Shown: one piece after another, positions 301 through 60,585 of the stretch | How the letters are laid out: the number at the start of each line of letters is the position of its first letter | How positions within the stretch are numbered: the stretch's first letter is position 1 | From: Minisyncoccota bacterium | GTDB taxonomy: Bacteria > Patescibacteriota > Minisyncoccia > Phycocordibacterales > PALSA-1337 | Reading direction: 5' to 3' | Assembly: GCA_041663145.1 (NCBI GenBank) | Contig: JBAZRG010000002.1 | Location: 22,384 to 86,383, forward strand | DNA: 64,000 bases | The notes under the pieces: model-generated | The model's input: only the letters and a program-made list of their open reading frames with translations | The model's database searches: none | What the model was told of the DNA's origin: nothing | Program-made: the position numbers and the translations under genes

Positions 301-436
301 TATTAAGGTAGTTCTTTGATATGCCAGTTACGTTCACCATAACAGAAAGCGTCTCAAAACTGAGGCATTTTCCGTTGTGGTGAACTGTAGTAACCACACA
401 TCAACAAAACAACGTATACGAAAGGTAATAACGATT

Positions 437-1123
437 ATGAAATCGATTACACCTGGTCAGATGGAACAGTTTGCTCGTTTTGTGACAGATGCTTCCGGTC
501 CAAGCACGAAGACGGCTCTTGAGCAGCTTCGCGACGACTGGGAATTCAGTCATGAAGGTCTTCAGCGCGCGCTCGGAAAAGGTAATCAGCTCAAATCCCG
601 CCTTATTCCGCTTCTCAAGGCCATGATCAAGGAAATGGCGACTAATATCCAAGGATGCGTGAAGCGCATCCTTGATGGAGAAGAGATCGCCATCGCCAAA
701 ACGAGCGGAAAGGAAAATCTCGCCCATGCCAAGGACGTTTTCACCGGTTGGGTTGATCCCGACTTCGTGAATTACGGCTGTGATGTGGAAGGGGAGCCTA
801 CCGCTCCGACACCTGTAGAGGTGTTCGAGATGGTGGAAAACGGCGACTTCGCGCGGATATTCGGTGGTTTCAATGTCAGCCTCGATCAGCTGCGTCTTTC
901 ACAGCACCAGATCAAGGCTTTCGCAAGGGATCACCGTGATAAGCTCCGCACGGAAGGATACGGGACCTTCTTCCTGTTCAAGGTTGGCGAAGAGTTCTTC
1001 GTTGCGTACGTGCACTTCTACGGCGGCGGGCGGCTCCGGGTCTACGTGCACCGCTTCTCGGACGTCAACGTCTGGGGCGCCGAGCGCCGTCATCGCGTCG
1101 TGCTCCCGAAACTGAACCAGTAG
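437..1123 (+). CDS. DGR target protein; the C-terminal about 40 aa are encoded by the variable repeat
   Basis: ORF 377..1123; the likely true start is the ATG at 437 (MKSITPGQ), which has an upstream AAGG. The gene is GC-richer than its surroundings. Its 3' 119 bp is an adenine-mismatch copy of the downstream template repeat. The fold is not recognisable from sequence; DGR targets are usually C-type-lectin-like. Confidence 0.7.
   Translation: MKSITPGQMEQFARFVTDASGPSTKTALEQLRDDWEFSHEGLQRALGKGNQLKSRLIPLLKAMIKEMATNIQGCVKRILDGEEIAIAKTSGKENLAHAKDVFTGWVDPDFVNYGCDVEGEPTAPTPVEVFEMVENGDFARIFGGFNVSLDQLRLSQHQIKAFARDHRDKLRTEGYGTFFLFKVGEEFFVAYVHFYGGGRLRVYVHRFSDVNVWGAERRHRVVLPKLNQ
996..1114 (+). repeat. 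DGR variable repeat (VR)
   Basis: 119 nt aligned without gaps to 1482-1600. There are 18 mismatches, every one at a position where the TR has A (VR has T, C or G). There are no mismatches at TR C, G or T positions. Confidence 0.9.
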
Positions 1124-1481
1124 GTTCACCTACTGGGTGGCACTTGCAAATTAGCCTTGAGCCTTTGGCTCTCAGTCCCTCTGATCCTTGTCAAAATTTA
1201 TTTTGGCAAATCAGGGGGATTTTTTGATTGAGCACAATCACCTACTGGGTTATACTGGAATGGCACGCATGAACGTACGGTGGCTATGGCTCCTGTGCCA
1301 CGCTTGTGAAGAAATACGTTCGGGAGTTCTGCTGGATATGTCTTGCAGAAGAGTGGATGTATTATTATCTAAACAAAAAATAATCAGTTGGTGTAGCGAA
1401 CTGGAGGACTTCAAGGTCCCGAATACTATTCAATTTGTCCTGATTGGGCGGGTGGTGTACTGGATGGTCCGCTACACATTA

Positions 1482-1600
1482 TCTTCGTTGCGAACGTGAA
1501 CTTCAACGACGACGGGCAGCTCAAGGTCAACGTGAACCGCTTCTCGAACGACAACGTCTGGAACGCCGAGAACCGTCATCGCATCGTGATCCCGAAACTG
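1482..1600 (+). repeat. DGR template repeat (TR)
   Basis: Invariant partner of the VR. Read in the VR frame it is rich in AAC codons (aac ttc aac gac gac ... aac gtg aac ... aac gac aac ... aac gcc gag aac), the classic DGR design that allows diversification without stop codons. The six-frame ORF 1496..1765 is this TR read in frame and is not a gene. Confidence 0.9.
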
Positions 1601-1615
1601 CAATTTCTCTCATCA

Positions 1616-1984
1616 TTATTTGGTGAGAGTTTTGTTGAGTGTCGATTTAGCAGACGGACTTTGAAGGCCTTTGCGCCATCCACCAAGCATCCGTCCTATT
1701 TCTTCGAGCTTTTCCGAGAGTTCTGTATATTTGTCAGTCGGCATGAGCTTGCTCTCCCATGCTAGTTGATAAAAGAATTTAAGAGTATCTACCTTCGTTA
1801 TTGTTCGACCAAGCATTACCGTTTTGGTTTCTGGTGGTAGATATATGCAAGAAAAACTAAATTCCAAAGTATCTAAGAATAAATCCTCGATCTTTTGCCC
1901 GATGCCGAGTCGTTCGACCCTCGGAAAGTTCCTATGAATAGTTAACCAAAACTGATATGCTTCTTTTTCCTTTAAAATTACCAC
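1616..1984 (-). CDS. avd: DGR accessory variability determinant (Avd), a four-helix-bundle protein
   Basis: 122 aa. The C-terminal ...LSEKLEEIGRMLGGWRKGLQ matches the Avd-type EVGRILGSWI ending, and the N-terminal EAYQFWLTIHRNFPRVERLG matches the Avd/23S-IVS-protein helix 1. It lies between the TR and the RT, but on the opposite strand. Confidence 0.7.
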   Translation of the reverse strand: MVILKEKEAYQFWLTIHRNFPRVERLGIGQKIEDLFLDTLEFSFSCIYLPPETKTVMLGRTITKVDTLKFFYQLAWESKLMPTDKYTELSEKLEEIGRMLGGWRKGLQSPSAKSTLNKTLTK

Positions 1985-2024
1985 TGGAGAATTGCGGGGG
2001 GGGGGTCGTTATAGTCATTTTATT

Positions 2025-3021
2025 TATGAAAAATAATGGGGTTTCGTACAACCATATCATATCTCTTAAAAATATCCACGAAGCGTGGCGCGAATTTGTC
2101 TCGGGCAAAAAATACAAAAAAGATGTCGCTGAATTTCTGCTCAGACTTTCGGAGAATACATATAAACTCCACACTGATCTGAAAAATAAAATATATGTTC
2201 ATGGACCGTACGAAGCGTTTGCTGTTAATGATCCAAAACCGCGCAGCATCCATAAAGCAAGCGTGCGGGACCGCTTACTCCACCACGCCCTCTATCGACA
2301 ACTCTACCCGTACTTTGATCAGAAGTTTATTCATGATTCCTATTCTTGCCGTGATTTTAAGGGAACACATCGGGCATTGGACCGTTTTATGCAATTTGCC
2401 CGCAAGGTTTCGAAGAGCAATAAACGCACCTGCTGGGTGTTGAAATGTGACATACGCAAATTCTTTGCTTCAGTTGACCATTCAGTCCTCATGGCAATAC
2501 TTAAAAAGCATGTCTCTGATTCTGATATTATCCGCCTTGTTGGTGGGGTAGTGGAGAGTTTTAAAAGTACTGGTCCAGGAAAGGGATTGCCGCTCGGTAA
2601 TCTCACGTCACAACTCCTTGTAAATGTTTATATGAATGAGTTTGACCAATATGTAAAGCATGTCCTCAAACAGGAGTTCTATATCCGTTACGCTGATGAT
2701 TTTGTGATTATGCATCACGATCGCAAGGCTTTGCTCGAGGTATTGCCGAAGATTGAAACCTTTCTTGAATCAATTCTTAAACTACAGCTTCATCCTGATA
2801 AGGTTTCTATCGAGACAGTTTCATCCGGTGTTGATTTTCTTGGTTGGGTGCATTTTCCGACTCATCGTGTACTTAGGACAAAGACAAAGAAGAGAATGTT
2901 TACAAGAATTGAAGATTCACAAGGAAAGGAAGAAGTAGTATGTTCATATCTCGGTATGTTAAAGCATGGGAATTGCAAAAAATTGAAGTGCAGGGTCATG
3001 AAATTGACAATCACAATCTAA
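2025..3021 (+). CDS. DGR reverse transcriptase
   Basis: RT motifs are present: RSIHKASVRDRLLHHAL (motifs 1-2), the DGR-specific GLPLGNLTSQLLVNVYMNEFD (motif 4 I/LGNxxSQ), and YADD in YIRYADDFVIMH (motif 5). The size of about 330 aa is typical of a DGR RT. The start is taken at ATG 2025 (MKNNGVSYNHI...); the six-frame ORF extends upstream to 1957. Confidence 0.9.
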
Positions 3022-3030
3022 TTTATCGTA

Positions 3031-3185
3031 GGAGCTTGGTGAATATTGTGTATTTGCTCCTCGCAATGCGATTTGAACCCCGAACAAATTGCCCATATTA
3101 GAGTAGCTCCGTCTACTCTAATATGGTTGCAATTTGGAGTGGGTGACCTTGCGAGGAGCAAATACACAATATTCACCAAGCTCCT
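3031..3185. repeat. Element A copy 1: a 36-bp outer inverted repeat enclosing a conserved ~85-nt core with an internal 14-bp hairpin
   Basis: The arm 3031-3066 (ggagcttggtgaatattgtgtatttgctcctcgcaa) is the reverse complement of 3150-3185. The core tgcgatttgaaccccgaacaaattgcccatattagagtagctccgtctactctaatatggttgcaatttggagtgggtgacc is nearly identical to the core at 44100-44190. Confidence 0.7.
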
Positions 3186-13944: not shown

Positions 13945-14673
13945 ATGAATCCAGCTTCAAACATCACTATATTTACCGATGGATCCTCACGTGGCAATCC
14001 TGGTCCTGGGGGATGGGGTGCCATTATCGTAGATAAAAAAGAAGATCAAAATAAATCTCACATTCGAGAGATTGGAGGCTCGGAGAAAAATACGACGAAT
14101 AATAGAATGGAATTAACTGCAGTTTTACGTGCCATTGGAAGTACGGCAAATGAAACAGTCAGTACAGTTTATACAGATTCCTCGTATGTCATAAATGGAA
14201 TAACCAAGTGGATCCATGGCTGGAAAAGAAATGGTTGGCAGACAAAAGCCAAAGAAGATGTCCTGAATAAAGATCTATGGGAAGAATTGGATAGAAATAT
14301 AAATAATAAAAAAATATCTTGGAAATATGTCGGGGGACATGTCGGTATTGCTGGAAATGAACGTTGTGATCTAATAGCGACCGGTTTCGCCGATGGTATC
14401 AAAGTCGATCTGTATGACGGCCCTTTGACTGGATATAAGGATAAAAATATTCTGAATATATCACTCGATCATACTAAAGCCACAGATAAAAAATCCAAGT
14501 CCAATCGTTCCAAAGCCAAAGCTTATTCATATATAAGTAGCATAAACGGTAAGATTGAAATCCATAAAAGTTGGCCGGAATGTGAAAAGAGAGTTAAGGG
14601 TGCAAGAGGAGCTAGATATAAAAAGGCATTGAGTCCACTAGAGGAGGCTGAAATTGTTGATGAATTTAAATAA
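13945..14673 (+). CDS. rnhA: Ribonuclease HI with a C-terminal basic extension
   Basis: Motifs TDGSSRGNPGPGGWGAII, NNRMELTAV and YTDSSYVINGITKWIHGWKRNGW are present. Confidence 0.85.
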   Translation: MNPASNITIFTDGSSRGNPGPGGWGAIIVDKKEDQNKSHIREIGGSEKNTTNNRMELTAVLRAIGSTANETVSTVYTDSSYVINGITKWIHGWKRNGWQTKAKEDVLNKDLWEELDRNINNKKISWKYVGGHVGIAGNERCDLIATGFADGIKVDLYDGPLTGYKDKNILNISLDHTKATDKKSKSNRSKAKAYSYISSINGKIEIHKSWPECEKRVKGARGARYKKALSPLEEAEIVDEFK

Positions 14674-14782
14674 CCAAAGAACCTCCCAGAAATAACTTCC
14701 CTCCCGTCTCCTGCGGGCGCTAATCGCTGGCTACCCATCCTCGGAGCACGGGAGGGAAGTTATTTCTGGGAGGTTCTTTGGT
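14672..14782. repeat. Element B copy 1: a 36-bp perfect inverted repeat enclosing a conserved 39-nt loop (cctgcgggcgct...atcctcgg)
   Basis: The arm 14672-14707 (aaccaaagaacctcccagaaataacttccctcccgt) is the reverse complement of 14747-14782. It overlaps the rnhA stop codon. Confidence 0.75.
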
Positions 14783-14836
14783 TAATTTAGACTTTCTTAA
14801 TCAGGATTTTAAGTTCCGCTTCTATAATGAACTCTC

Positions 14837-16198
14837 ATGAATCGGAGAGTTTATTTATTTTGGAGCATATTGGTTGCCATTGCTTTGCTTCGTATCTGGC
14901 ATTCCTTTGACATGGATATTCCAGATATCGGTTCTTGTGTTAAAGAAAATGTATCTGGTGTTGGTATTGTTCATACTGAACCGGAACGTAAAGAGTCAGG
15001 TCAGATCATGCTAGTTCGAGTGTTGGATATGCGAGTCGCCAGTACTTCGGAATCGTGTGGAGAGGAAGTGATCCTTAGAGTAAAGACAAAATTGTATCCG
15101 CGTTTTGTATTTGGCGATAAGGTTTCATTTCAGGGAAAATTGTCTGCACCGTTCAATTTCAAAAGTGAAAACGGTAGATCGTTCGATTATATAGGTTTTC
15201 TAGCCAAAGATGAGGTGTTCTTTGAAATAAAAAGCGCGTCTGTGCGTAAATCTGATTCAGATCAGTCGATGAATAGTGGGGGAATAGTCAGTAAAATTCA
15301 ATCAGTTTTATTTCAATTGAAAAGAGGCTTTGTAGTAAATCTAGAAAATGCACTCGGTGAACCACATGGCGCTCTAGCAGCAGGTCTGGTAGTTGGTGAG
15401 AAAGCTGCTCTGGGAAAAGATTTGCTCGACGATTTTCGTCTGGTTGGACTGATTCATATTGTAGTCTTGTCTGGATATAACATCACTATCGTCGGAGATG
15501 CTATGAGACGATTGCTTTCATTTTTACCAAGAGTGTGGGGAATTGTTTGTGGTGGTATAGGAATAGTATTGTTCGGAATTTTGGTCGGGGGAGGTGCGAC
15601 TGTGGTCCGATCTTGTTTTATGGCTTCCATCGCTCTTTCTGCAGATCTTATTCGTCGAGATTACAATGTCATACGAGCTCTCATATTTTCAGCTCTACTC
15701 ATGCTCATTGAAAATCCGATGATTTTGCTTCATGATCCTTCTTTTCAATTATCATTTCTAGCTACAGCCGGTCTCATAGCATTGTCTGGACCTATAGAGA
15801 GTAAGTTGACGTTTATAACAGAAAAGTTCGGTATGCGTGGCATAATAGCTTCTACTTTAGCTACACAGGTTTTTGTCTCTCCGTTCATCCTATATATGAT
15901 GGGACAGATATCTGTGATCGGTATTGTTGTAAATATATTAGTATTACCACTCATTCCGCTCACAATGTTTGTTGTGTTTCTAACGGGAGCATTGGGTTTT
16001 ATAGAACCACACATCTCAGAGATTGCTGGATACTTTTCACATTTACTCCTATCGTACGAATTATTCATGGTTGAGAATTTTGCAAAGTTTTCTTTCGCTG
16101 CCATAAAGGTCCCGATCTTTAGTCAGTGGTGGGTAGTGGGTTTCTATGGGGCACTTATAACGGTTTGGTTCGGAGTTAGGAGATTGAAAAGAATGTAA
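14837..16198 (+). CDS. comEC: ComEC/Rec2-family DNA-uptake channel protein (DUF4131 plus competence domain; lacks the C-terminal MBL domain)
   Basis: 453 aa polytopic membrane protein with a ComEC-type competence-domain core (VGLIHIVVLSGYNITIV). Confidence 0.65.
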   Translation: MNRRVYLFWSILVAIALLRIWHSFDMDIPDIGSCVKENVSGVGIVHTEPERKESGQIMLVRVLDMRVASTSESCGEEVILRVKTKLYPRFVFGDKVSFQGKLSAPFNFKSENGRSFDYIGFLAKDEVFFEIKSASVRKSDSDQSMNSGGIVSKIQSVLFQLKRGFVVNLENALGEPHGALAAGLVVGEKAALGKDLLDDFRLVGLIHIVVLSGYNITIVGDAMRRLLSFLPRVWGIVCGGIGIVLFGILVGGGATVVRSCFMASIALSADLIRRDYNVIRALIFSALLMLIENPMILLHDPSFQLSFLATAGLIALSGPIESKLTFITEKFGMRGIIASTLATQVFVSPFILYMMGQISVIGIVVNILVLPLIPLTMFVVFLTGALGFIEPHISEIAGYFSHLLLSYELFMVENFAKFSFAAIKVPIFSQWWVVGFYGALITVWFGVRRLKRM

Positions 16199-16464: not shown

Positions 16465-17589
16465 ATGGCAAACAGTAATCTCACAAACGCAAAAAGAGTA
16501 AAGAATGATGAGTTTTATACTCAGTACGGCGATATTCAAAAGGAGATTGAAGCGTATTTGGAATACGATGCAAATGTATTTCGTGGTAAGGTGGTCTATT
16601 GCAACTGCGATGATCCGTTCGAGAGCAATTTCTTTCGCTATTTTGTGCTCAATTTCAATAAGCTTGGATTGAAACAACTTATAACTACTAGCTATAAACC
16701 TTCACCTGTGGCCAACTCGCAATTGGGATTGTTTGGCGATGACAAGACTCTTACAAAAGCAAAAGGTCGTCCCAAGGTAACTGCCAATAAATTTATCATC
16801 AATGAAGTGCATGATGTGGACGGTGACGGCGAGTTCAATTTGAAGGATATTGCGGAGCAGTTAAAGGCAAACAAACATAATGAATGGACACCGCTCGAAG
16901 GTGATGGTGATTTTCGGAGCGATGAATGTGTAGAACTACTCAAACAATCAGATATTGTCGTAACAAATCCGCCGTTCAGTTTGTTTCGGGAGTATGTTAA
17001 GCAACTCTTTGAGTATGATAAAAAGTTTGTGATTATTGGTAATATGAATACGATTACTGGCAAAGAAATATTCCCGCTAATTAAAAATAATAAATTGTGG
17101 TTAGGAAATGGTTTTCATGCTGGCAACGCTTATTTCTCTACTCCTTTTGCTAAAGAGTATGGAGAGGGAGTTTATATGCCCGAAACTGGTTTAGTAAAAT
17201 TTAGGAATGTTTGTTGGTTTACCAATCTCGACCATGGGCGTCGTCATCAACCGTTGCCACTCATGACAATAGAAGAAAATTTGAAATACAGTAAGCACAA
17301 AGAAATTAAGGGTAAAAAGACGTATGAAAAGTATGACAATTATGATGCTATAGAAGTACCGTTTACTGATGCCATACCAAGTGATTATGATGGAGTGATG
17401 GGTGTACCTATCAGCTTTTTGGATAAATACTCTCCCGAGCAATTTGAAATTTTAGGCAGTGATTATAATGTTAAAGAGGGATTACTTCCAAAATTAGTTA
17501 ATCAAAAATGGAAGGGTAAGTTAGATAGGGGTTATGTAAATGACAAAAGACTTTTTACTAGAATTTTCATTAAGCATAGAGAAAAATAA
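16465..17589 (+). CDS. N6-adenine-specific DNA methyltransferase
   Basis: Catalytic motif IV NPPF (SDIVVTNPPFSLFREY) and an N-terminal NDEFYTQ region typical of adenine MTases. Confidence 0.7.
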   Translation: MANSNLTNAKRVKNDEFYTQYGDIQKEIEAYLEYDANVFRGKVVYCNCDDPFESNFFRYFVLNFNKLGLKQLITTSYKPSPVANSQLGLFGDDKTLTKAKGRPKVTANKFIINEVHDVDGDGEFNLKDIAEQLKANKHNEWTPLEGDGDFRSDECVELLKQSDIVVTNPPFSLFREYVKQLFEYDKKFVIIGNMNTITGKEIFPLIKNNKLWLGNGFHAGNAYFSTPFAKEYGEGVYMPETGLVKFRNVCWFTNLDHGRRHQPLPLMTIEENLKYSKHKEIKGKKTYEKYDNYDAIEVPFTDAIPSDYDGVMGVPISFLDKYSPEQFEILGSDYNVKEGLLPKLVNQKWKGKLDRGYVNDKRLFTRIFIKHREK

Positions 17590-17591
17590 TC

Positions 17592-18053
17592 ATGGATGTT
17601 TTGATTACAATTATATTAACTTCCATTAGTATTTTTATCGGTATTGTTGCTGTTTATTATGCAAAAAGATCTGATGAGAATTTTAGAAGTCCAAAAATTG
17701 ATCTAGAATTATCTCCCGGTCATGAATCTTTCTATATAAGGAATGTCGGAACAGATATAGCTTTGGGTTTAAAAGAAAATACAAATTATTTTAGAGATAT
17801 CCCTGATAGATTATGGAATTTCACTGGCCCAATTGATTATATGCGTACAAAGAATTATAGTGTGTCGAAATTTATAACCTTTCATGATAGTAAAATGCCA
17901 GCACCATCAAGCTCTGTTCTTGTCAATTTTGAATATCAAAATACAGATGGAATTAAATTCTATTCACATATAGAAGTGAAACGAGGAACTCCTACTCAGC
18001 AATTATATTTTACAGATTCTCGATTATTAAAATGGGGAAAATTGAAGAAATAA
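17592..18053 (+). CDS. Hypothetical membrane-anchored protein (operon partner of the MTase)
   Basis: 153 aa with an N-terminal TM helix. Its start lies 2 nt after the MTase stop. Confidence 0.45.
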   Translation: MDVLITIILTSISIFIGIVAVYYAKRSDENFRSPKIDLELSPGHESFYIRNVGTDIALGLKENTNYFRDIPDRLWNFTGPIDYMRTKNYSVSKFITFHDSKMPAPSSSVLVNFEYQNTDGIKFYSHIEVKRGTPTQQLYFTDSRLLKWGKLKK

Positions 18054-18054
18054 C

Positions 18055-18906
18055 ATGAAAAGACAACAATCACATAAAGATACCTTGCTGACTGTCTTTG
18101 AAAAAACGAGTATTCGCAAGATTTGGCATGACGAGCAATGGTACTTTTCTGTGATTGATATCATATCCGCACTTGATGTGACGGGACGCGAGCCGAGAAA
18201 GTATTGGTCAGATCTGAAGCAAAAGTTGATAACAGAAGGATATGTTGAAGTGTCCGAAAAAATCGGACAGTTGAAACTGCAAGCGGAGGACGGCAAGATA
18301 CGAGAGACAGACGTTGCTAATATGGAGACTGTTTTGCGTATTATTCAATCAGTGCCTTCGTCAAAAGCCGAGCCGCTCAAAAGATGGCTTGCAAAAGTCG
18401 GAACAGAACGAATCGTGGAAATTCAAGATCCGGCACTTGGCGTTAATCGCGCACGAGAACTTTGGAAGAAACATGGTCGAAGCGATAAATGGATTCAACA
18501 GAGAATGATGGGGCAAGAGACTAGGAATAAGCTCACCGATTATTGGAAAGAAGCAGGAGTAAAAGAGGGTGATGAATACGCTATACTTACAAATATCATC
18601 CATCAGGAATGGGCTGATATATCCGTATCAGATCACAAGTTGCTAAAAAATCTTGGCAAAACACATAATTTACGAGATCATATGAACGAGGCGGAATTGA
18701 TTCTGACTGCACTCGCTGAACTCTCCACCAGACAGATTGCCTCGAGTATGCAAGCCAAAGGATTTGTAGAGAACCAGATACCGGCTAAAAAGGGTGGAAA
18801 GATTGCCAAAGACGCTCGAAAATCACTTGAAGAGAAGACGGGAAAGCCGGTTATTACTGGGGCAAATTATTTACCAAATAAACAGTCCATAAGAAAATTA
18901 AAATAA
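18055..18906 (+). CDS. Bro-N domain protein (DinD / phage antirepressor-like)
   Basis: The Bro-N core is IRKIWHDEQWYFSVIDIISAL. The start lies 1 nt after the upstream stop. Confidence 0.55.
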   Translation: MKRQQSHKDTLLTVFEKTSIRKIWHDEQWYFSVIDIISALDVTGREPRKYWSDLKQKLITEGYVEVSEKIGQLKLQAEDGKIRETDVANMETVLRIIQSVPSSKAEPLKRWLAKVGTERIVEIQDPALGVNRARELWKKHGRSDKWIQQRMMGQETRNKLTDYWKEAGVKEGDEYAILTNIIHQEWADISVSDHKLLKNLGKTHNLRDHMNEAELILTALAELSTRQIASSMQAKGFVENQIPAKKGGKIAKDARKSLEEKTGKPVITGANYLPNKQSIRKLK

Positions 18907-18907
18907 G

Positions 18908-20074
18908 ATGAAAACAATCCTAAGAACTGAAATAACTGTTAAAGATATTTGTGAAGGGTTTGTCTATAATGAACTGGAAGGTAAAGGTTTGTTTGGCTTA
19001 TCTGGTAATCTCACTATTCAACCAGAGTATCAACGTAACTACATATATGCATCTGATGGTGGAAAAAGAGAGGTTGCTGTTATTGAGTCAATACTCAAAA
19101 GTTACCCAATAGGTTTGATTTATTTTAATAAAGTAGATGAGGAAAAATTTGAAGTCTTGGACGGGCAACAGCGTATCACTAGCGTCGGACGTTTTGTAAC
19201 TGGAAAATTTGCCATTCGAGATGAGAATGGGATGCAATATTTTGAGGCTATGGCAGGAGACAAAAAAGATAAGATTTTGGAAACTAAGCTGCTCATTTAT
19301 GAATGTGAAGGTACCGAAAGCCAAATAAAAGAGTGGTTTAAGACAATCAACATAGCCGGAGTTCCGCTGGTCCCTCAAGAATTGTTAAATGCGATTTATT
19401 CAGGACCATTTGTTACATTAGGTAAAGAAGAGTTTAGCAATAGTCAGAATGCTAATATTCAAAAATGGAGTGCGTATATAAAAGGAAGTGCAAACAGACA
19501 AGCATTTTTTGAGAGAGCTCTGGACTGGGTGAGTAGGGGAAATATCGATGATTATATGAGTATTCATCGCAACGACAAAAATATCAATGAGCTAAAAAAA
19601 TATTTCAACAGCGTGATTGATTGGATCTCTAGTGTATTTACCGACGTAGAAAGCGAGATGTGCGGTCTTGAATGGGGTAGACTATATGAGGAGTATCATA
19701 AGAAGGCTTATGACCCCAAGAGAGTGTCAGTCGAAGTTCGTAAACTTTATGGTGATTCGTACATCAGAAATCGCAAAGGTATTTTTGAGTATATTCTCGG
19801 TGGTTCAATCGATTCAAAATTACTTGAAGTCCGAATCTTTGATGAAGCAGATAAAAAAACTGTCTATTTAACACAAACTGCCAAAGCAGAGAAAAAAGGT
19901 GAATCAAATTGTCCACTTTGTGCTGTTGGACATGATGCCAACAAGGAAAAGATTTGGACTCTAGGTGATATGGATGCCGACCATGTAGCTGCTTGGAGCA
20001 AGGGTGGTAAGACAACGATAAAAAATTGTGAGATGTTGTGTAAGACGCATAATAGAGCGAAAGGTAATCGGTAA
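18908..20074 (+). CDS. GmrSD-like type IV (modification-dependent) restriction endonuclease: DUF262 ParB-like NTPase/nuclease plus a C-terminal HNH/DUF1524 nuclease
   Basis: The DUF262 motif DGQQRIT is present. The C-terminus carries CPLC...H..., DADHVAAWSKGG and CKTHNRAKGN, an HNH-like set of residues. Confidence 0.7.
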   Translation: MKTILRTEITVKDICEGFVYNELEGKGLFGLSGNLTIQPEYQRNYIYASDGGKREVAVIESILKSYPIGLIYFNKVDEEKFEVLDGQQRITSVGRFVTGKFAIRDENGMQYFEAMAGDKKDKILETKLLIYECEGTESQIKEWFKTINIAGVPLVPQELLNAIYSGPFVTLGKEEFSNSQNANIQKWSAYIKGSANRQAFFERALDWVSRGNIDDYMSIHRNDKNINELKKYFNSVIDWISSVFTDVESEMCGLEWGRLYEEYHKKAYDPKRVSVEVRKLYGDSYIRNRKGIFEYILGGSIDSKLLEVRIFDEADKKTVYLTQTAKAEKKGESNCPLCAVGHDANKEKIWTLGDMDADHVAAWSKGGKTTIKNCEMLCKTHNRAKGNR

Positions 20075-26216: not shown

Positions 26217-28361
26217 ATGAACCGCGACTATCCACTAGAGAGAATGCGCAATTTTGGAATCATTGCCCATATTGATGCCGGAAAAACTACGACTTCTGAG
26301 CGTATTTTGTACTATACAGGAATGACTCATAAGATCGGTGAAGTTCATGAAGGTGATACTGTGACTGATTGGATGGAACAAGAGAGGGAACGTGGTATTA
26401 CGATCACAGCCGCCGCCATCACCTGTTTTTGGAATCCTACCTACATGCCAAAGGGTGATGTTTCCAAGAAAGTCCGTTTTAATATTATCGATACTCCCGG
26501 ACACATCGACTTTACGGTAGAGGTAAAGAGATCTTTGCGTGTTTTGGACGGCGCAGTCGTGGTTTTTGATGGAGTTGCCGGAGTAGAGCCACAATCAGAG
26601 ACAAACTGGCGTTATGCTGATGATGGAAAAGTTCCTCGACTTTGCTTCATTAACAAGCTTGATCGTACAGGAGCTTCATTTGAAAAGTCTTTCAAGTCAA
26701 TTCAGGAACGTTTAAATAAAAATGCGATCAGATTCCAGATTCCAATCGGTTTGGAAGGGGATCATAAGGGAGTTGTGGATCTCTTGAATATGAAAGCCTA
26801 TTATTTCGAAGGAGAAATGGGCAATCAAATCATCGAAAAGGAAATTCCAGCTGAACTCCTCGATGATGCAAAGAAATACCGTTCTATTTTGGTTGAAAAG
26901 ATCGTCGAACACGATGATGCTACAATGCAGGCATATTTGGATGGAAAAGAGATATCTATAGAAGAGCTCAAGAAAATCACAAGAAAAGCAGTTATTAACA
27001 ATGAAATTTTCCCAGTCTTTACTGGTTCTGCTTTGAAAAATATCGGTGTTCAATTGGTTTTGGACGCCGTTGTTGACTATTTGCCTTCGCCGTTAGATAT
27101 TCCAGCTGTTAAAGGTATCAATCCTAATACTGGTGAAGAAGTTTTTCGCCATGCTGACGATAAAGAGCCATTTTCTGCTTTGGCTTTCAAACTTCAGAAC
27201 GATCCTTTCGTCGGAGCGTTGACATTCTTTCGAGTGTATTCTGGAACTATAGAAGCTGGATCATACATATACAATTCTTCAACTGGTAAAAAAGAGCGAC
27301 TAGGTCGCATCGTCCGTCTGCAGGCCGACAAGCGTGAAGAAGTTAAGAAAGTCTTTGCTGGTGAGATCGCAGCGGCAGTAGGTTTGAAAGAAGCCCTTAC
27401 CTCACATACTTTTTCGGATGAAACAAATCCTATTGTCCTAGAAGTCATAAAATTCATGGAGCCAGTTATTTCTCTTCGAGTAGAACCAAAGACGAAGGCT
27501 GACCAAGAAAAGATGGGTGTAGCTCTACGCAAGCTCAGCATCGAAGATCCAACTTTCAGAATTTCTTCAAACCAGGAGACAGGTGAAACTATCATCTCCG
27601 GTATGGGCGAACTTCATTTGGAGATCATGGTAGATCGTATGAAGCGTGAATTTGCTGTCGAAGCAAATGTCGGCGAACCTCAGGTAGCTTATAGAGAGAC
27701 TATCTTGAATACTGCAGAAGCTGAAAATAAATACATCAAGCAAACTGGAGGTAAAGGTCAATATGGACACGTCCGTATCACCTTGAAACCTATGGAACCA
27801 TGGCCAGAAGGTGAAAAGATCCCGAAGACAGTTCATAGGTTTGATGATTTTGAATTCATAAACTCTATCAAAGGTGGTGTTATCCCAAATGAATTTATCC
27901 CGGCTGTTGAAAAAGGTGTTCATGAAGCTATGGATCGAGGTATCGTGGCCGGTTACAAGATGGTTAACATTTCCTGTGAACTAACATTTGGTTCGTATCA
28001 CGACGTGGACTCATCAGAAATCGCTTACAAGATCGCCGCATCTCAGGCTTTTCAGGATGCCGCCAAGAGAGCTAAGCCTGTGATCCTTGAACCTATCATG
28101 CGACTGGAAGTAGTTGCGCCGGAGAAATACATGGGTGATATCAACGGTTCGATCGCTTCGAAACGAGGTACCATCGAAGGTTCTGAGCCAAAAGGTCAGG
28201 TATTGGCTATTCACGCCAAGGTTCCTCTCTCGGAAATGTTCGGGTATACAACAGAACTTCGTTCTATGACTTCTGGTCAAGGCAGCGCAATGATGGAATT
28301 TGATCACTATGAAGTCGTGCCGGCAAACGTAGCGGCAGAGATTGTGGAAAAGAGGAAGTAA
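26217..28361 (+). CDS. fusA: Elongation factor G
   Basis: 714 aa with G-domain motifs [17 protein letters not shown] and NKLD. Confidence 0.95.
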
Positions 28362-28372
28362 TAGAACCGTAA

Positions 28373-28472
28373 ACCCCACGCGACATAACAACATCCCTCC
28401 GTACACCTGCGGGCGCTTACGCTAAGCACAATCCTCGGTGTACGGAGGGATGTTGTTATGTCGCGTGGGGTT
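28373..28472. repeat. Element B copy 2: a 34-bp perfect inverted repeat enclosing a conserved loop (cctgcgggcgcttacgctaagcacaatcctcgg)
   Basis: 28373-28406 is the reverse complement of 28439-28472. The loop shares cctgcgggcgct and atcctcgg with copy 1. It lies immediately after the fusA stop. Confidence 0.75.
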
Positions 28473-28563
28473 ATCTATACATTTGAAGTTATACACAGCG
28501 TTGTTATCTTAGTGGGGGGGGTATAATAAGACTACTTAATGAAGTGGTCTTATTATTTATTTC

Positions 28564-42583: not shown

Positions 42584-43819
42584 ATGACCTGGAAACATAT
42601 TATCAAGACTTCTCTGACCGGACTCTCGACGAATAGATCGAGATCTTTTCTGACTATACTGGGAATAGTGATAGGTATTACATCGATAATGCTGGTGGTT
42701 TCTCTAGGTGCTGGAGCTCAAAATCTGATACTCGGTCAGATCCAAGGACTCGGTTCGAATACTCTGACTGTACACGCCGGCAGGGAACCATCGGGTCCAT
42801 CGGACGTATCTTTTCTATATAGCGATTCTTTGAAGGAAAAAGATGTTATTGCCCTCAAGAATAAAACAAATGTTCCCGGTTTAAAATCCATAATGCCCTC
42901 GGTTTTCGGCGCTGTTACTGTTTCATACGGTTCAAACTCATATCAAACATCAATATTTGGTTGTACTGATTTGGTTGTGGATATCATGGATCTCAATCCT
43001 ATTGGAGAATTTTTCACCGAACAAGACGTTTCTTCGAGAAGCGATACGGTTGTTCTAGGTTCAAAAGTGGTTGAGCACATATTCGATAATGAAGATCCTA
43101 TCGGACAAAAGGTCAAGATTAAGGGTCGGAATTTCAAAGTAATTGGCACGTTGCCGGCTTCTGGTGGAGGATCGATATTTAATTTTGACGATATGGTTCT
43201 AGTACCATATACAACTGCTCAGTATTATATTCTCGGTCAGAAACATTTTAGCGAAATCATCATGCAGGCGGTTTCTGATATTGCAGTTCCATCTACAGCT
43301 GAAGATATCAAAACAACCCTACGCGAATCTCATGGTATTACAGATCCAACTAAAGATGATTTCAACGTCAGCACTCAACAAGATCTAGCAAAGAGACTAG
43401 GTACTATCACTAGTATTTTGACTTATTTCCTAGTGGCTGTGGCTTCGATCGCTCTATTTGTAGGAGGTGTAGGCATCATGAACATCATGCTTGTTGCTGT
43501 TACAGAACGCACTCGAGAGATAGGTCTTCGAAAGGCCTTGGGTGCAACGAATAAAGATATATTGTCACAATTTTTGATTGAAGCTATATGTCTCACGGTA
43601 ATGGGCGGTATCATTGGAATATTTCTAGGTTCAGTATTGGCTTTTGCTATTTCCTTTGGGCTTTCGAAAGGTTTAGGTGTTGATTGGCAATATATATTCC
43701 CCTGGAGTGGGGCAATGCTAGGTTTTGGTGTATCAGCTCTGATCGGTCTCATTTTCGGCGGATATCCAGCTAGTCAGGCATCAAAGAAGAGTCCGATAGA
43801 GGCGTTGAGGTATGAGTAG
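42584..43819 (+). CDS. ABC transporter permease, FtsX-like (MacB-type)
   Basis: 411 aa with an N-terminal TM helix, a large periplasmic domain and a C-terminal 3-TM FtsX domain. Confidence 0.85.
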   Translation: MTWKHIIKTSLTGLSTNRSRSFLTILGIVIGITSIMLVVSLGAGAQNLILGQIQGLGSNTLTVHAGREPSGPSDVSFLYSDSLKEKDVIALKNKTNVPGLKSIMPSVFGAVTVSYGSNSYQTSIFGCTDLVVDIMDLNPIGEFFTEQDVSSRSDTVVLGSKVVEHIFDNEDPIGQKVKIKGRNFKVIGTLPASGGGSIFNFDDMVLVPYTTAQYYILGQKHFSEIIMQAVSDIAVPSTAEDIKTTLRESHGITDPTKDDFNVSTQQDLAKRLGTITSILTYFLVAVASIALFVGGVGIMNIMLVAVTERTREIGLRKALGATNKDILSQFLIEAICLTVMGGIIGIFLGSVLAFAISFGLSKGLGVDWQYIFPWSGAMLGFGVSALIGLIFGGYPASQASKKSPIEALRYE

Positions 43820-43858
43820 ATTCGCTCTGATTTGAATAGATTTATAACGTAACCCCCC

Positions 43859-44007
43859 TTGCATCCTCGTTTTTCATCCTCGAACTCTACTCACAATATA
43901 CCAACATTTTCACAAAGGATGCGTTACAAGGATTCGCGCATCCTTTGGAAAATGTATTGGTATATTGTTTCGCAGATTATTCTCGGAAGAAAAACGAGGA
44001 TGCAAGG
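43859..44007. repeat. Nested palindromic structure: an 18-bp perfect outer inverted repeat enclosing a ~70-nt imperfect hairpin
   Basis: cttgcatcctcgtttttc at 43859-43876 is the reverse complement of 43990-44007. The inner acaatataccaacattttcacaaaggatgcg pairs with cgcatcctttggaaaatgtattggtatattgt. Confidence 0.6.
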
Positions 44008-44068
44008 AGTGTTACGTAAAATCTTCATATTCACGTCCATGACTACTTTTGTAAAATTTCAGCTCCTC

Positions 44069-44220
44069 GAGCTCGGTGAATATTGTTCGGAAACGACTCG
44101 CAATGCGATTTGAACCCCGAACAAATTGCCCATATCTGAGTAGTTCCATCTACTCAAATATGGATGCAATTTGGAGTGGGTGACCTTGCGTGTCGTTTCC
44201 GAACAATGTTCACCGAGCTC
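44069..44220. repeat. Element A copy 2 (outer 35-bp inverted repeat plus conserved core)
   Basis: gagctcggtgaatattgttcggaaacgactcgcaa (44069-44103) is the reverse complement of 44186-44220. The core at 44104-44185 matches the 3067-3149 core at most positions. The variable stem segment differs from copy 1 but stays self-complementary. Confidence 0.75.
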
Positions 44221-55042: not shown

Positions 55043-55216
55043 AATCGCTTTTGAATAACAGGCACTAACAGAATGTTCCCAGAACAATCCGAGTATGCGA
55101 TTGAGCTTCGAAAAATTACCCGTGTTTGGTGAAGCCCTGGAACCAAACACGGTTGTAATTTGAGAAGCGATTACGCAGGATTGTGGCGGGAACATTCTGT
55201 TAGTGCCTGTTATGAT
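55043..55216. repeat. Complex interleaved inverted-repeat structure downstream of ndk (pseudoknot-like or alternative stems)
   Basis: Pair A: cgtgcgtaatcgcttt (55043-55058) with gaagcgattacgcagg (55165-55180). Pair B: tgaataacaggcactaacagaatgttccc (~55060-55090) with gggaacattctgttagtgcctgttatga (~55188-55216). There is an inner hairpin cgtgtttggt...ccaaacacgg. Confidence 0.55.
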
Positions 55217-60195: not shown

Positions 60196-60557
60196 GGGGA
60201 TGATCGGCATAGACAGTCTATGGTCTCCGTTCGTGCGGCGTGAGCACCGTTAACTCATAAATCTGACGGAAACTCTAAATGCTAAATCAACCGTTTCTCC
60301 GTATTTCGGAGCAAAGGACTTTAGTTTCGCTCTTGCTTAAAGAGCGCGTTCACCTCAGGGTATCCTAACCTGAGAATGGGCGTCATTATCTGGATGTAGG
60401 GCAGTGAAGTTTCTCGCTTCATTGTCTGAAATCATGAGATCGTGAATACGTGTTTTGTCTTCTTTCGAGCGTATTCATTAAACTTCAAAGAATTCTACCG
60501 CCGTAGAATCGTTCGGTTGATCTTGATTGCACCTGGGTTCGATTCCCAGCATCTCCA
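60196..60557 (+). ncRNA. ssrA: tmRNA (SsrA); the 3' CCA is not encoded
   Basis: The 5' GGGGAUGAUCGGCAUAGAC pairs with the 3' CAUCUCC plus the discriminator A. The T-arm is CUGGGUUCGAUUCCCAG (60531-60549). The internal tag reading frame is ...GCA AAG GAC TTT AGT TTC GCT CTT GCT TAA, giving ...AKDFSFALA*. It is adjacent to smpB. Confidence 0.8.
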
Positions 60558-60585
60558 CAAAAATAAGAAGCGTAGCGACTATATT

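Follow-up and report, generated by a model that had tools for sequence, protein, structure and literature searches.

The two genes rnhA and fusA of a Minisyncoccota bacterium each end at a long hairpin, and the question raised by this locus is what kind of element these hairpins represent. The stretch analyzed here comprises 64,000 nucleotides of contig JBAZRG010000002.1 (positions 22,384 to 86,383; assembly GCA_041663145.1) and is referred to as the window; all coordinates are positions within it. An earlier description made from the letters of the window (the sequence-only reading) had grouped the two hairpins as copies of one motif with a shared loop, which we term Element B. Our analysis points, with a probability that we put at about 60%, to a new family of selfish palindromic insertion elements of Patescibacteria, similar to the Rickettsia palindromic elements (RPEs), in which the whole hairpin is the unit.

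Two long hairpins at the ends of rnhA and fusA

Both hairpins were confirmed as long and perfect at the places first described, with arms of 37 bp around a 40-nt apex in copy 1 and arms of 36 bp around a 29-nt apex in copy 2. The arms of copy 1 can be extended to 40 nt at 98% (14668-14787). The features of the two copies are listed below.

14671..14784, plus strand: Element B copy 1, complete hairpin, between the rnhA stop codon and comEC
14671..14707, plus strand: copy 1 5' arm, starting with the rnhA stop codon TAA
14708..14747, plus strand: copy 1 apex, with a CTCC / GGAG closing helix, a bulged C and the apical loop TGCGGGCGCTAATCGCTGGCTACCCATCCTC
14748..14784, plus strand: copy 1 3' arm
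28372..28472, plus strand: Element B copy 2, complete hairpin, beginning 10 nt past the fusA stop codon
28372..28407, plus strand: copy 2 5' arm
28408..28436, plus strand: copy 2 apical loop, TGCGGGCGCTTACGCTAAGCACAATCCTC, which is the family core in diverged form
28437..28472, plus strand: copy 2 3' arm

Copy 1 lies in the gene order recJ-rnhA-comEC and overlaps the rnhA stop codon as claimed, with the codon (14671-14673) forming the first triplet of its stem. Copy 2 follows rpsG-fusA; its location past the fusA stop codon (28359-28361) was also borne out, with a gap of 10 nt in place of the 11 nt originally given. Folding of the single strand predicted free energies of -85.8 kcal/mol for copy 1 (z = -13.0) and -81.3 kcal/mol for copy 2 (z = -14.5) compared with dinucleotide shuffles, none of which folded as well as the copies (0/200).

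The two copies have a common G+C-rich apex, CCTGCGGGCGCT..CGCT..ATCCTCGG, and the apical loop of copy 1 (TGCGGGCGCTAATCGCTGGCTACCCATCCTC) holds a small GGCG/CGCT hairpin. For each of the motifs CCTGCGGGCGCT and ATCCTCGG the window has exactly two occurrences, both within Element B apexes; counts of such short motifs alone are not significant, and the similarity rests on the family alignment and on a covariance model (R1), which scored copy 1 at 97.9 bits and copy 2 at 64.3 bits. The loop similarity that first drew attention to the pair holds in both. The accompanying claim of completely different stems stood for the outer stems only, since the inner ~10 bp are common to both window copies (TCCCTCC(C)GT / AC(G)GGAGGGA) and the arms fit a degenerate consensus.

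An independent Logan assembly of the same organism (contig L001, SRR18595301) stops inside the left arm of copy 1 at window position ~14700, 27 nt past the rnhA stop codon, as expected for assembly at a long palindrome. An assembly artefact was rejected as the origin of Element B, because copies come from independent assemblies and keep the frame where they lie within conserved genes. The nearest relatives of the elongation factor G (EF-G) encoded in the window are Paceibacterota and Taylorbacteria by protein comparison.

A family with a conserved apex and covarying arms

The sequence-only reading had proposed a search for the loop consensus elsewhere, with a lack of further copies counting against it; such copies were found. 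In total the Element B family comprises 25 distinct copies, located in low-GC Patescibacteria contigs. Scanning of a genome collection with a 20-base loop pattern gave mostly chance matches in high-GC genomes, and at least five real copies were identified among the 116 loci listed (L042, L055, L065, L078 and L112), which belong to Saccharibacteria and Paceibacterota metagenome-assembled genomes (MAGs). A tighter pattern applied to metagenome contigs revealed about 22 further loci, with a G+C content of 0.39-0.48.

Element B is about 94-120 bp long. Its outer stem of about 19-31 bp varies in sequence from copy to copy while the pairing is nearly perfect, and leads to a conserved 3x3 internal loop with TCC opposite TNC. 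Inward of this loop lie two pairs, a bulged C on the 3' side and a covarying inner helix of 4-6 bp that terminates in CC/GG. The conserved apical loop of 31 nt, TGCGGGCGCT-(1-3 nt)-CGCTGGCTACCCATCCTC, encloses the small GGCG/CGCT hairpin seen in copy 1. Both window copies represent a variant or subfamily in which the internal loop is fully paired. Across the family the arms follow a degenerate consensus (..CCCTGCACAAYACA..TCTCTCCG), with similarity that fades outward; this alignment of the arms indicates that the copies descend from a common hairpin and were not built from local sequence.

Covariation was assessed in the family alignment. This analysis revealed 170 doubly changed pair cells compared with 76 +/- 7 in shuffles (0/500 reached 170), and paired cells amounted to 79% in the structure described above compared with 38-52% when the partners were slid by 1-3 columns. 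Compensatory changes were seen at all 19 of the 19 outer-stem pairs and at 4/6 inner-helix pairs. L161 and L163 are orthologous loci; four of the changes between their stems are compensated double substitutions, and a single one is uncompensated. Given the conserved apex and the covarying stems, a structured motif with a trans-acting recogniser, as initially suggested, is the most natural reading.

Searches of the window and of about 100 kb from syntenic relatives with the R1 model gave no additional copies. In viral contigs the strict pattern had 0 matches, as did the core of Element A (a larger hairpin described below); the 18-mer GCGCTRATCGCTGGCTAC matched by chance only, in coding DNA of high G+C content. 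A peptide search for more coding hosts, made with a composite query of four possible translations, returned nothing at E <= 10. Rfam 15, which contains no DNA repeats of the RPE kind, has no family for Element B at gathering or relaxed thresholds; the matches of the hairpin at relaxed E-values were spurious plant or animal microRNA precursors that scored far under threshold. No description of such elements in Patescibacteria was found in literature searches. Element B appears to be an undescribed family, though genomic features of its kind are known.

Empty sites lack both arms and the apex

Syntenic relatives were compared at the two insertion sites of the window. These are L176 and L177 (92% EF-G identity), L178/L179 (91%) and L180/L181 (90%), with L178/L179 covering the fusA side only. 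The gene order recJ-rnhA-comEC...rpsL-rpsG-fusA is common to the window, L176, L177 and L180/L181. The site after fusA is empty in L176 and L177, where TAATAC is joined to GTTATCCCCATAAG; in the window the same site reads TAATAG-AACCGTA, then the hairpin, then GTTATCTATACAT. The rnhA-comEC spacers of L176, L177 and L180 are also without Element B, and that of L176 carries an unrelated palindrome. Because both arms and the apex are extra compared with the empty sites, stem plus apex form one inserted unit. We rejected the possibilities that the stems are copied from flanking target DNA or made anew at each insertion, as the empty sites lack both arms and the arms of different copies align to a degenerate consensus.

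No target-site duplications flank the copies, and the comparison with the fusA empty site gave no clean duplication. Conserved termini and a flanking target motif were likewise absent among the 24 copies compared. No gene for a transposase, an integrase or an HUH enzyme, including the IS200/TnpB and Y1 types, was found among the 24 window open reading frames (ORFs) scanned. The proposal of a TnpB/IS200-type target hairpin gained no support from the same scan, in which neither such a gene nor any other transposase was present.

Copies inside essential genes are in frame

Several members of the family lie within coding sequence. Their host genes were identified by Pfam, on contigs with a G+C content of 0.45-0.51, and are as follows.

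L042, L119 (= L137) and L170 (= L133): in frame in dnaE (DNA polymerase III alpha)
L126 (= L151): in frame in uvrA (UvrA)
L134 (= L141) and L055: in frame in tsaD (TsaD), two lineages
L065: in frame in smc (SMC)

These copies show that placement at gene 3' ends, which the sequence-only reading gave for the two window hairpins, is not a defining property. The three dnaE copies share one site, at which the inserts amount to 35-36 extra residues (an example of a peptide spanning the insert is ...SSRGWVASDQRPQ...) and most DnaE homologues are uninterrupted (...F-G-D-R-(F/L)-(F/Y)-(I/L)-E...). In the dnaE orthologues L119 and L170 the core is read in different frames, as SRGWVASDQRPQ compared with AEDGSQRSAPAG, giving the core peptides RGWVASDQRPQ and EDGSQRSAPAG, respectively, and three compensating 1-nt indels bring back the downstream frame. 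The different core frames and the compensating indels indicate that the element is translated and that conservation of the core is not a protein-level constraint. Judged from the sequences, the coding copies appear to be translated and not removed.

Identity between dnaE orthologues was 94-97% in the core, 48-61% in the arms and 80-90% in the coding flanks. Hypermutation of the arms was rejected as the cause of their low identity, which we put down to a mosaic segment, locally divergent, that surrounds the element: four-fold sites of L119 and L170 differ by 8.6% gene-wide, local divergence around the element is much higher, and identity is 59% in the arms and 62% in the downstream 32 nt. In the dnaE of L042, four-fold divergence is saturated (58%); the hairpin is nevertheless retained in every dnaE copy.

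In other Patescibacteria (P0125, P0126, P0128, P0139 and P0157), unrelated inserts of 13-36 residues occupy this dnaE site, between F-G and D-R-F. The insert in the dnaE of L187 (1620-1778; P0125) folds as a multi-hairpin structure. The dnaE genes of L187 and L188 are each annotated as a pair of ORFs, with the split about 300 residues from the start, for which a frameshift or an assembly error is possible.

Orientation and base pairing

To describe orientation we used the strand that carries CCTGCGGG. This strand is the sense strand of the upstream gene in both window copies and in the intergenic copy of L173, and is more often antisense among intergenic copies (L122, L128, L149, L172 and L167). 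Of the coding copies, that in the tsaD of L055 is sense, and those in dnaE, uvrA, smc and the tsaD of L134 are antisense. Relative to the flanking or host gene, the tally is roughly 10 antisense and 4-5 sense. The tsaD copies of L134 and L055 occupy the same insertion site with opposite apex orientation. This flip could reflect an in-situ inversion via recombination between the arms or independent insertions at a permissive loop, and the divergence between L134 and L055 is too high to choose between the two. An inversion would be visible as a flip of the apex alone, given that the arms are palindromic.

Real RNA helices tolerate G-U and avoid A-C. On the CCTGCGGG strand, the stem pairs comprised 760 Watson-Crick pairs, 8 G-T and about 15-19 A-C oppositions. 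On neither strand was G-T commoner than A-C, and sorting of the copies by host-gene orientation gave the same result for the mRNA strand. Wobble statistics were rejected as evidence for an RNA strand, given no significant asymmetry with internal-loop positions removed and copies sorted by mRNA strand. The lack of a G-T excess, together with orientation independence, points to a palindrome whose complementarity is probably kept at the DNA level.

These data bear directly on a host-functional structured RNA, in which the hairpin is transcribed and a host protein or RNase binds its apex; its variants include RNase III-type processing or an mRNA-stability element at operon ends, and an independent small RNA. 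Unpaired regions that are conserved, combined with helices that covary, classically mark a structured RNA, many intergenic copies begin within about 15 nt of a stop codon, and nucleotide conservation of the core persists in different reading frames. On the complementary strand the 3x3 loop reads GNA/GGA, an internal loop that could form tandem sheared purine pairs. We nevertheless consider a structured RNA unlikely: the orientation is mixed, the tsaD copies are mutually flipped, G-U is not enriched over A-C as in real RNA helices, copies in essential ORFs would be cleaved or would stall translation, and Rfam holds no match. Intergenic copies in both orientations relative to the upstream gene argue in particular against an mRNA 3'-end processing signal, and thus against the RNase processing site proposed by the sequence-only reading.

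A host-functional DNA signal would fit the pairing better, with an extruded hairpin or cruciform of specific apex serving as a binding site for a chromosomal protein. Watson-Crick-only pairing, orientation independence and a core conserved in situ whatever the reading frame are all in its favour, and the roles proposed include nucleoid organisation, replication or repair, and DNA-uptake recognition in these ComEC-dependent bacteria. We regard such a signal as quite improbable, however, as the distribution is patchy, with none in about 100 kb of syntenic sequence of close relatives, copies are sparse and present or absent at given sites, and the inside of an essential ORF is an odd choice for a dedicated host site. 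We know of no candidate protein that binds Element B.

Element B as a palindromic insertion element

According to the reading that we prefer, an RPE-like insertion element, arms and apex together would be the inserted unit. Its targets would be of two sorts: short intergenic spacers, just past a stop codon, and tolerant loops on the surface of large housekeeping proteins, in which the element would be in frame and translated. Complementarity of the arms may be kept by arm-to-arm templated correction or gene conversion; alternatively, selection may act for a DNA hairpin or cruciform, and not for an RNA fold. Such upkeep would let the arm sequences drift freely yet stay paired, and may occasionally flip the apex. 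The conserved apex, made up of the 31-nt loop, the small GGCG/CGCT hairpin, the 3x3 pyrimidine internal loop and the bulged C, would be the recognition module for a putative trans-acting protein that mobilises or maintains the element, and the element ends carry no sequence signal.

Several observations weigh against an insertion element of this kind. The copies were gathered by exact core match, and part of the invariance that the core appears to show is therefore due to ascertainment; two copies found free of this bias (L055 3372-3457 and L173 3175-3216) have diverged or interrupted cores. The polymorphisms at fusA and rnhA could be deletions in the relatives rather than insertions in the window. 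No two non-orthologous copies are near-identical, and recent transposition is thus not shown. The family is sparse, with two copies per 64-kb window and none in about 100 kb of syntenic relative sequence, and no mobilising enzyme was found among the 24 window ORFs scanned. In dnaE, pairing and core are kept across saturated divergence, which leaves room for an in-situ function; this retention exceeds the prediction for a purely selfish, decaying relic.

Other hairpins and elements of the window

Three larger hairpins in the window, termed Element A (3030-3185, 44069-44220 and 55055-55213), each lie just past a gene end. Their arms measure 37, 35 and 36 nt, and their apexes of 82-87 nt contain a nested second hairpin, with a stem that is variable between copies. 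The reverse complement of Element A resembles Element B (ATCCTGCG-TAATCGCT ... ACTCGGAT), and the B covariance model matches the Element A copy at 55062-55207 on the minus strand (28.8 bits, E 6.5e-4). Based on this resemblance and the model match, Elements A and B probably belong to one superfamily. A further hairpin family, Element C, has variable outer arms and a shared apex (..ATATACCAACATTTTCACAAA..). Its copy in the window (43847-44017) stands in tandem with an Element A copy, past a MacB/FtsX-like gene (42584-43819), and its second copy (L078 2910-3078) is on an unrelated MAG contig that also bears a B copy.

A bolder reading would unite Elements A, B and C as a class of mobile or maintained DNA hairpins that are recognised purely by structure; we hold it to be doubtful. 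The hairpin would be extruded as a single strand, and its apical loop, 3x3 internal loop and bulge would be read by a protein that acts at the hairpin base regardless of sequence. The arms would then be free to drift, to homogenise mutually and to flip the apex. If this were true, the logic of mobilisation or maintenance would be unlike that of systems based on terminal inverted repeats (TIRs), of repetitive extragenic palindromes (REPs) with their REP-associated tyrosine transposases (RAYTs), and of attC sites. Such a system would operate in genome-reduced bacteria of the candidate phyla radiation (CPR) and could colonise essential genes.

Mini-hairpins of another type were seen in L176 (1288-1341) and L138 (2457-2520), with perfect arms of 18-23 bp and an 18-nt loop; among the loops, AGCGGTGAGGGCCACCGG resembles the reverse complement of CCGCTGGCCAACAGCGCT. 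In L176 the mini-hairpin spans 54 nt within the recJ ORF.

The window also contains a complete diversity-generating retroelement (DGR) at 377-3021. It comprises a target gene (377-1123) with the variable repeat (VR; 996-1114), the template repeat (TR; 1482-1600), avd on the minus strand (1616-1984) and the gene for the reverse transcriptase (RT; 1957-3021). All TR/VR differences (18/18) are at TR adenines, and a hairpin at 1117-1136 overlaps the stop codon of the target gene.

Targets of DGRs use a downstream hairpin with free stem sequence (PMC3240598; PMC5758913), and the Element A copy at 3030, related to Element B, begins 9 nt past the RT stop codon. Element B might on these grounds be a component or by-product of the window DGR, either as a hairpin recognised by the RT or as a remote target-recognition hairpin, which we judge to be very improbable. 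Directly past the VR lies a canonical hairpin that belongs to the DGR itself (8-bp stem, 4-nt loop), the TR has a single VR partner in the window, no VR-like sequence lies ahead of either B copy, and no RT was found in other B-bearing contigs. With six hairpins among about 60 spacers, there is a roughly 10% chance that one adjoins the RT. Assignment of Element B to the DGR target-recognition hairpins was rejected, as the only TR/VR pair (1482-1600 / 996-1114) comes with its own hairpin at 1117-1136.

Scarcely credible is the idea that the window copies are unusual intrinsic terminators of rnhA and fusA, to which both would be suited by their sense orientation past stop codons: neither has a T-tract, as the sequence-only reading had correctly observed in setting them apart from canonical terminators, a terminator scan flags separate, conventional terminator-like hairpins with T-rich tails downstream (14826-14855, which overlaps the comEC start, and 28523-28556, which has a 15-bp stem), family members are found antisense to genes and inside essential ORFs, and relatives are without these hairpins at the same gene ends.

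Between comEC and sodA the window holds a small defence and restriction-modification islet (16465-20074) that is absent from L176, L177 and L180; it comprises a gene for an EcoRI-type adenine methyltransferase, an unknown ORF, a gene for a protein with a Bro-N domain and one for a GmrSD_N + HNH nuclease. A tmRNA gene (60196-60560) represents the only Rfam family above gathering threshold in the window.

Implications

Patescibacteria have tiny, streamlined genomes that are usually thought to be poor in mobile DNA. They nevertheless carry hairpin insertions, including those in dnaE, uvrA, smc and tsaD that add about 35 residues. The unusual feature of Element B is its reversed conservation, with the apex kept and the ends free in sequence, always paired, and paired by Watson-Crick matches only. 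The family offers a natural system in which to study the upkeep of long perfect DNA palindromes and the possible recognition of a hairpin without terminal sequence signals. There are also practical consequences. Element B palindromes break de Bruijn-graph and short-read assemblies, and one public contig stops in copy 1. Annotators should avoid terminator or small-RNA labels for these hairpins, and should expect in-frame inserts or frame-breaking assembly problems in CPR genes.

Comparison with known systems

Two classes were rejected on architecture. IS200/IS605-TnpB ends do not correspond to a single hairpin with only a 29-40-nt apex between its arms, and neither tnpA nor tnpB is present in the window ORFs scanned. 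Intrinsic terminators have a short G+C-rich stem and a 3-8-nt loop, with a U/T tract directly after; the window copies have stems of 36-37 bp, apexes of 29-40 nt and no T-run, and the terminator scan flags other hairpins.

The attC sites of integrons are like Element B in that structure is conserved over sequence, in their location at gene 3' ends and in the importance of extrahelical bases and internal loops, and their functional form is a folded single DNA strand. They conserve the hairpin base (R/L boxes, GTTRRRY) and vary the apex, whereas Element B does the opposite. In a check for the R''/R' core (RYYYAAC...GTTRRRY), no GTTRRRY box was identified at the bases of the window hairpins (TAACCAAAG...CTTTGGTTA and AACCCCACG...CGTGGGGTT). 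No integrase or cassette array adjoins these copies, which have recJ-rnhA-comEC and rpsG-fusA as neighbours.

Hairpin insertions rich in G+C are also known from mitochondria, where near-perfect palindromes occupy intergenic and coding positions in compact A+T-rich genomes (PMC2800124, PMC6649704). Examples are the hairpin elements of sponges termed RHEs, the GC clusters of fungi and the coding palindromes of nematomorphs. The likeness lies in their being hairpin insertions; they are organellar, have another architecture and are not homologous to Element B.

Miniature inverted-repeat transposable elements, or MITEs, are defined by conserved TIRs and target-site duplications. Families such as Correia/NEMIS, the enterobacterial repetitive intergenic consensus (ERIC) and the Coxiella QMITEs are, like Element B, non-autonomous insertions of about 100-150 bp that are able to fold. 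Element B has no target-site duplication, conserved terminus or target motif, and is thus not a TIR-type MITE derived from a DDE transposon. Some MITEs sit within ORFs or are transcribed together with genes (PMC5896051, PMC10969869).

The sequence-only reading had also likened the hairpins to REPs and bacterial interspersed mosaic elements (BIMEs). This comparison stands in the broad sense of a small palindromic repeat, and fails on length, stem conservation, the base tag and the intragenic copies. REPs, BIMEs and REP doublets forming hairpins (REPINs) are small repeated palindromes that usually lie just downstream of genes; REPs are recognised as a structure by a trans-acting HUH enzyme, the RAYT, and a REPIN is a long hairpin of similar size to Element B. 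REPs have stems of 20-40 nt that are conserved in sequence and tagged at their base by GTAG or CGTC, and their loops vary (PMC3733652). Element B measures 94-120 nt, its outer stems are unrelated in sequence and no conserved tetranucleotide was found at the hairpin base. REPs are extragenic and high-copy, numbering tens to hundreds per genome, whereas Element B has the reverse pattern of conservation, intragenic copies and a low copy number. The window holds two copies per 64 kb, and no RAYT/Y1 gene is among its 24 ORFs scanned.

RPEs were reportedly described by Ogata et al. in 2000. Like Element B, these repeats form hairpins, which in RPEs measure about 100-150 bp, and occur in small genomes rich in A+T. 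They lie between genes as well as in frame in ORFs, where RPEs add roughly 30-50 residues, and they encode no transposase. The two families belong to different phyla and are likened by behaviour only, with no sequence relationship expected. Copies within an RPE family are similar over their whole length, in contrast to Element B, in which the arms have drifted until near-unrelated while the apex is conserved and the pairing almost perfect. In its behaviour Element B is RPE-like: a hairpin of about 100 bp that is found in intergenic spacers and in frame within genes, and that leaves the gene undisrupted.

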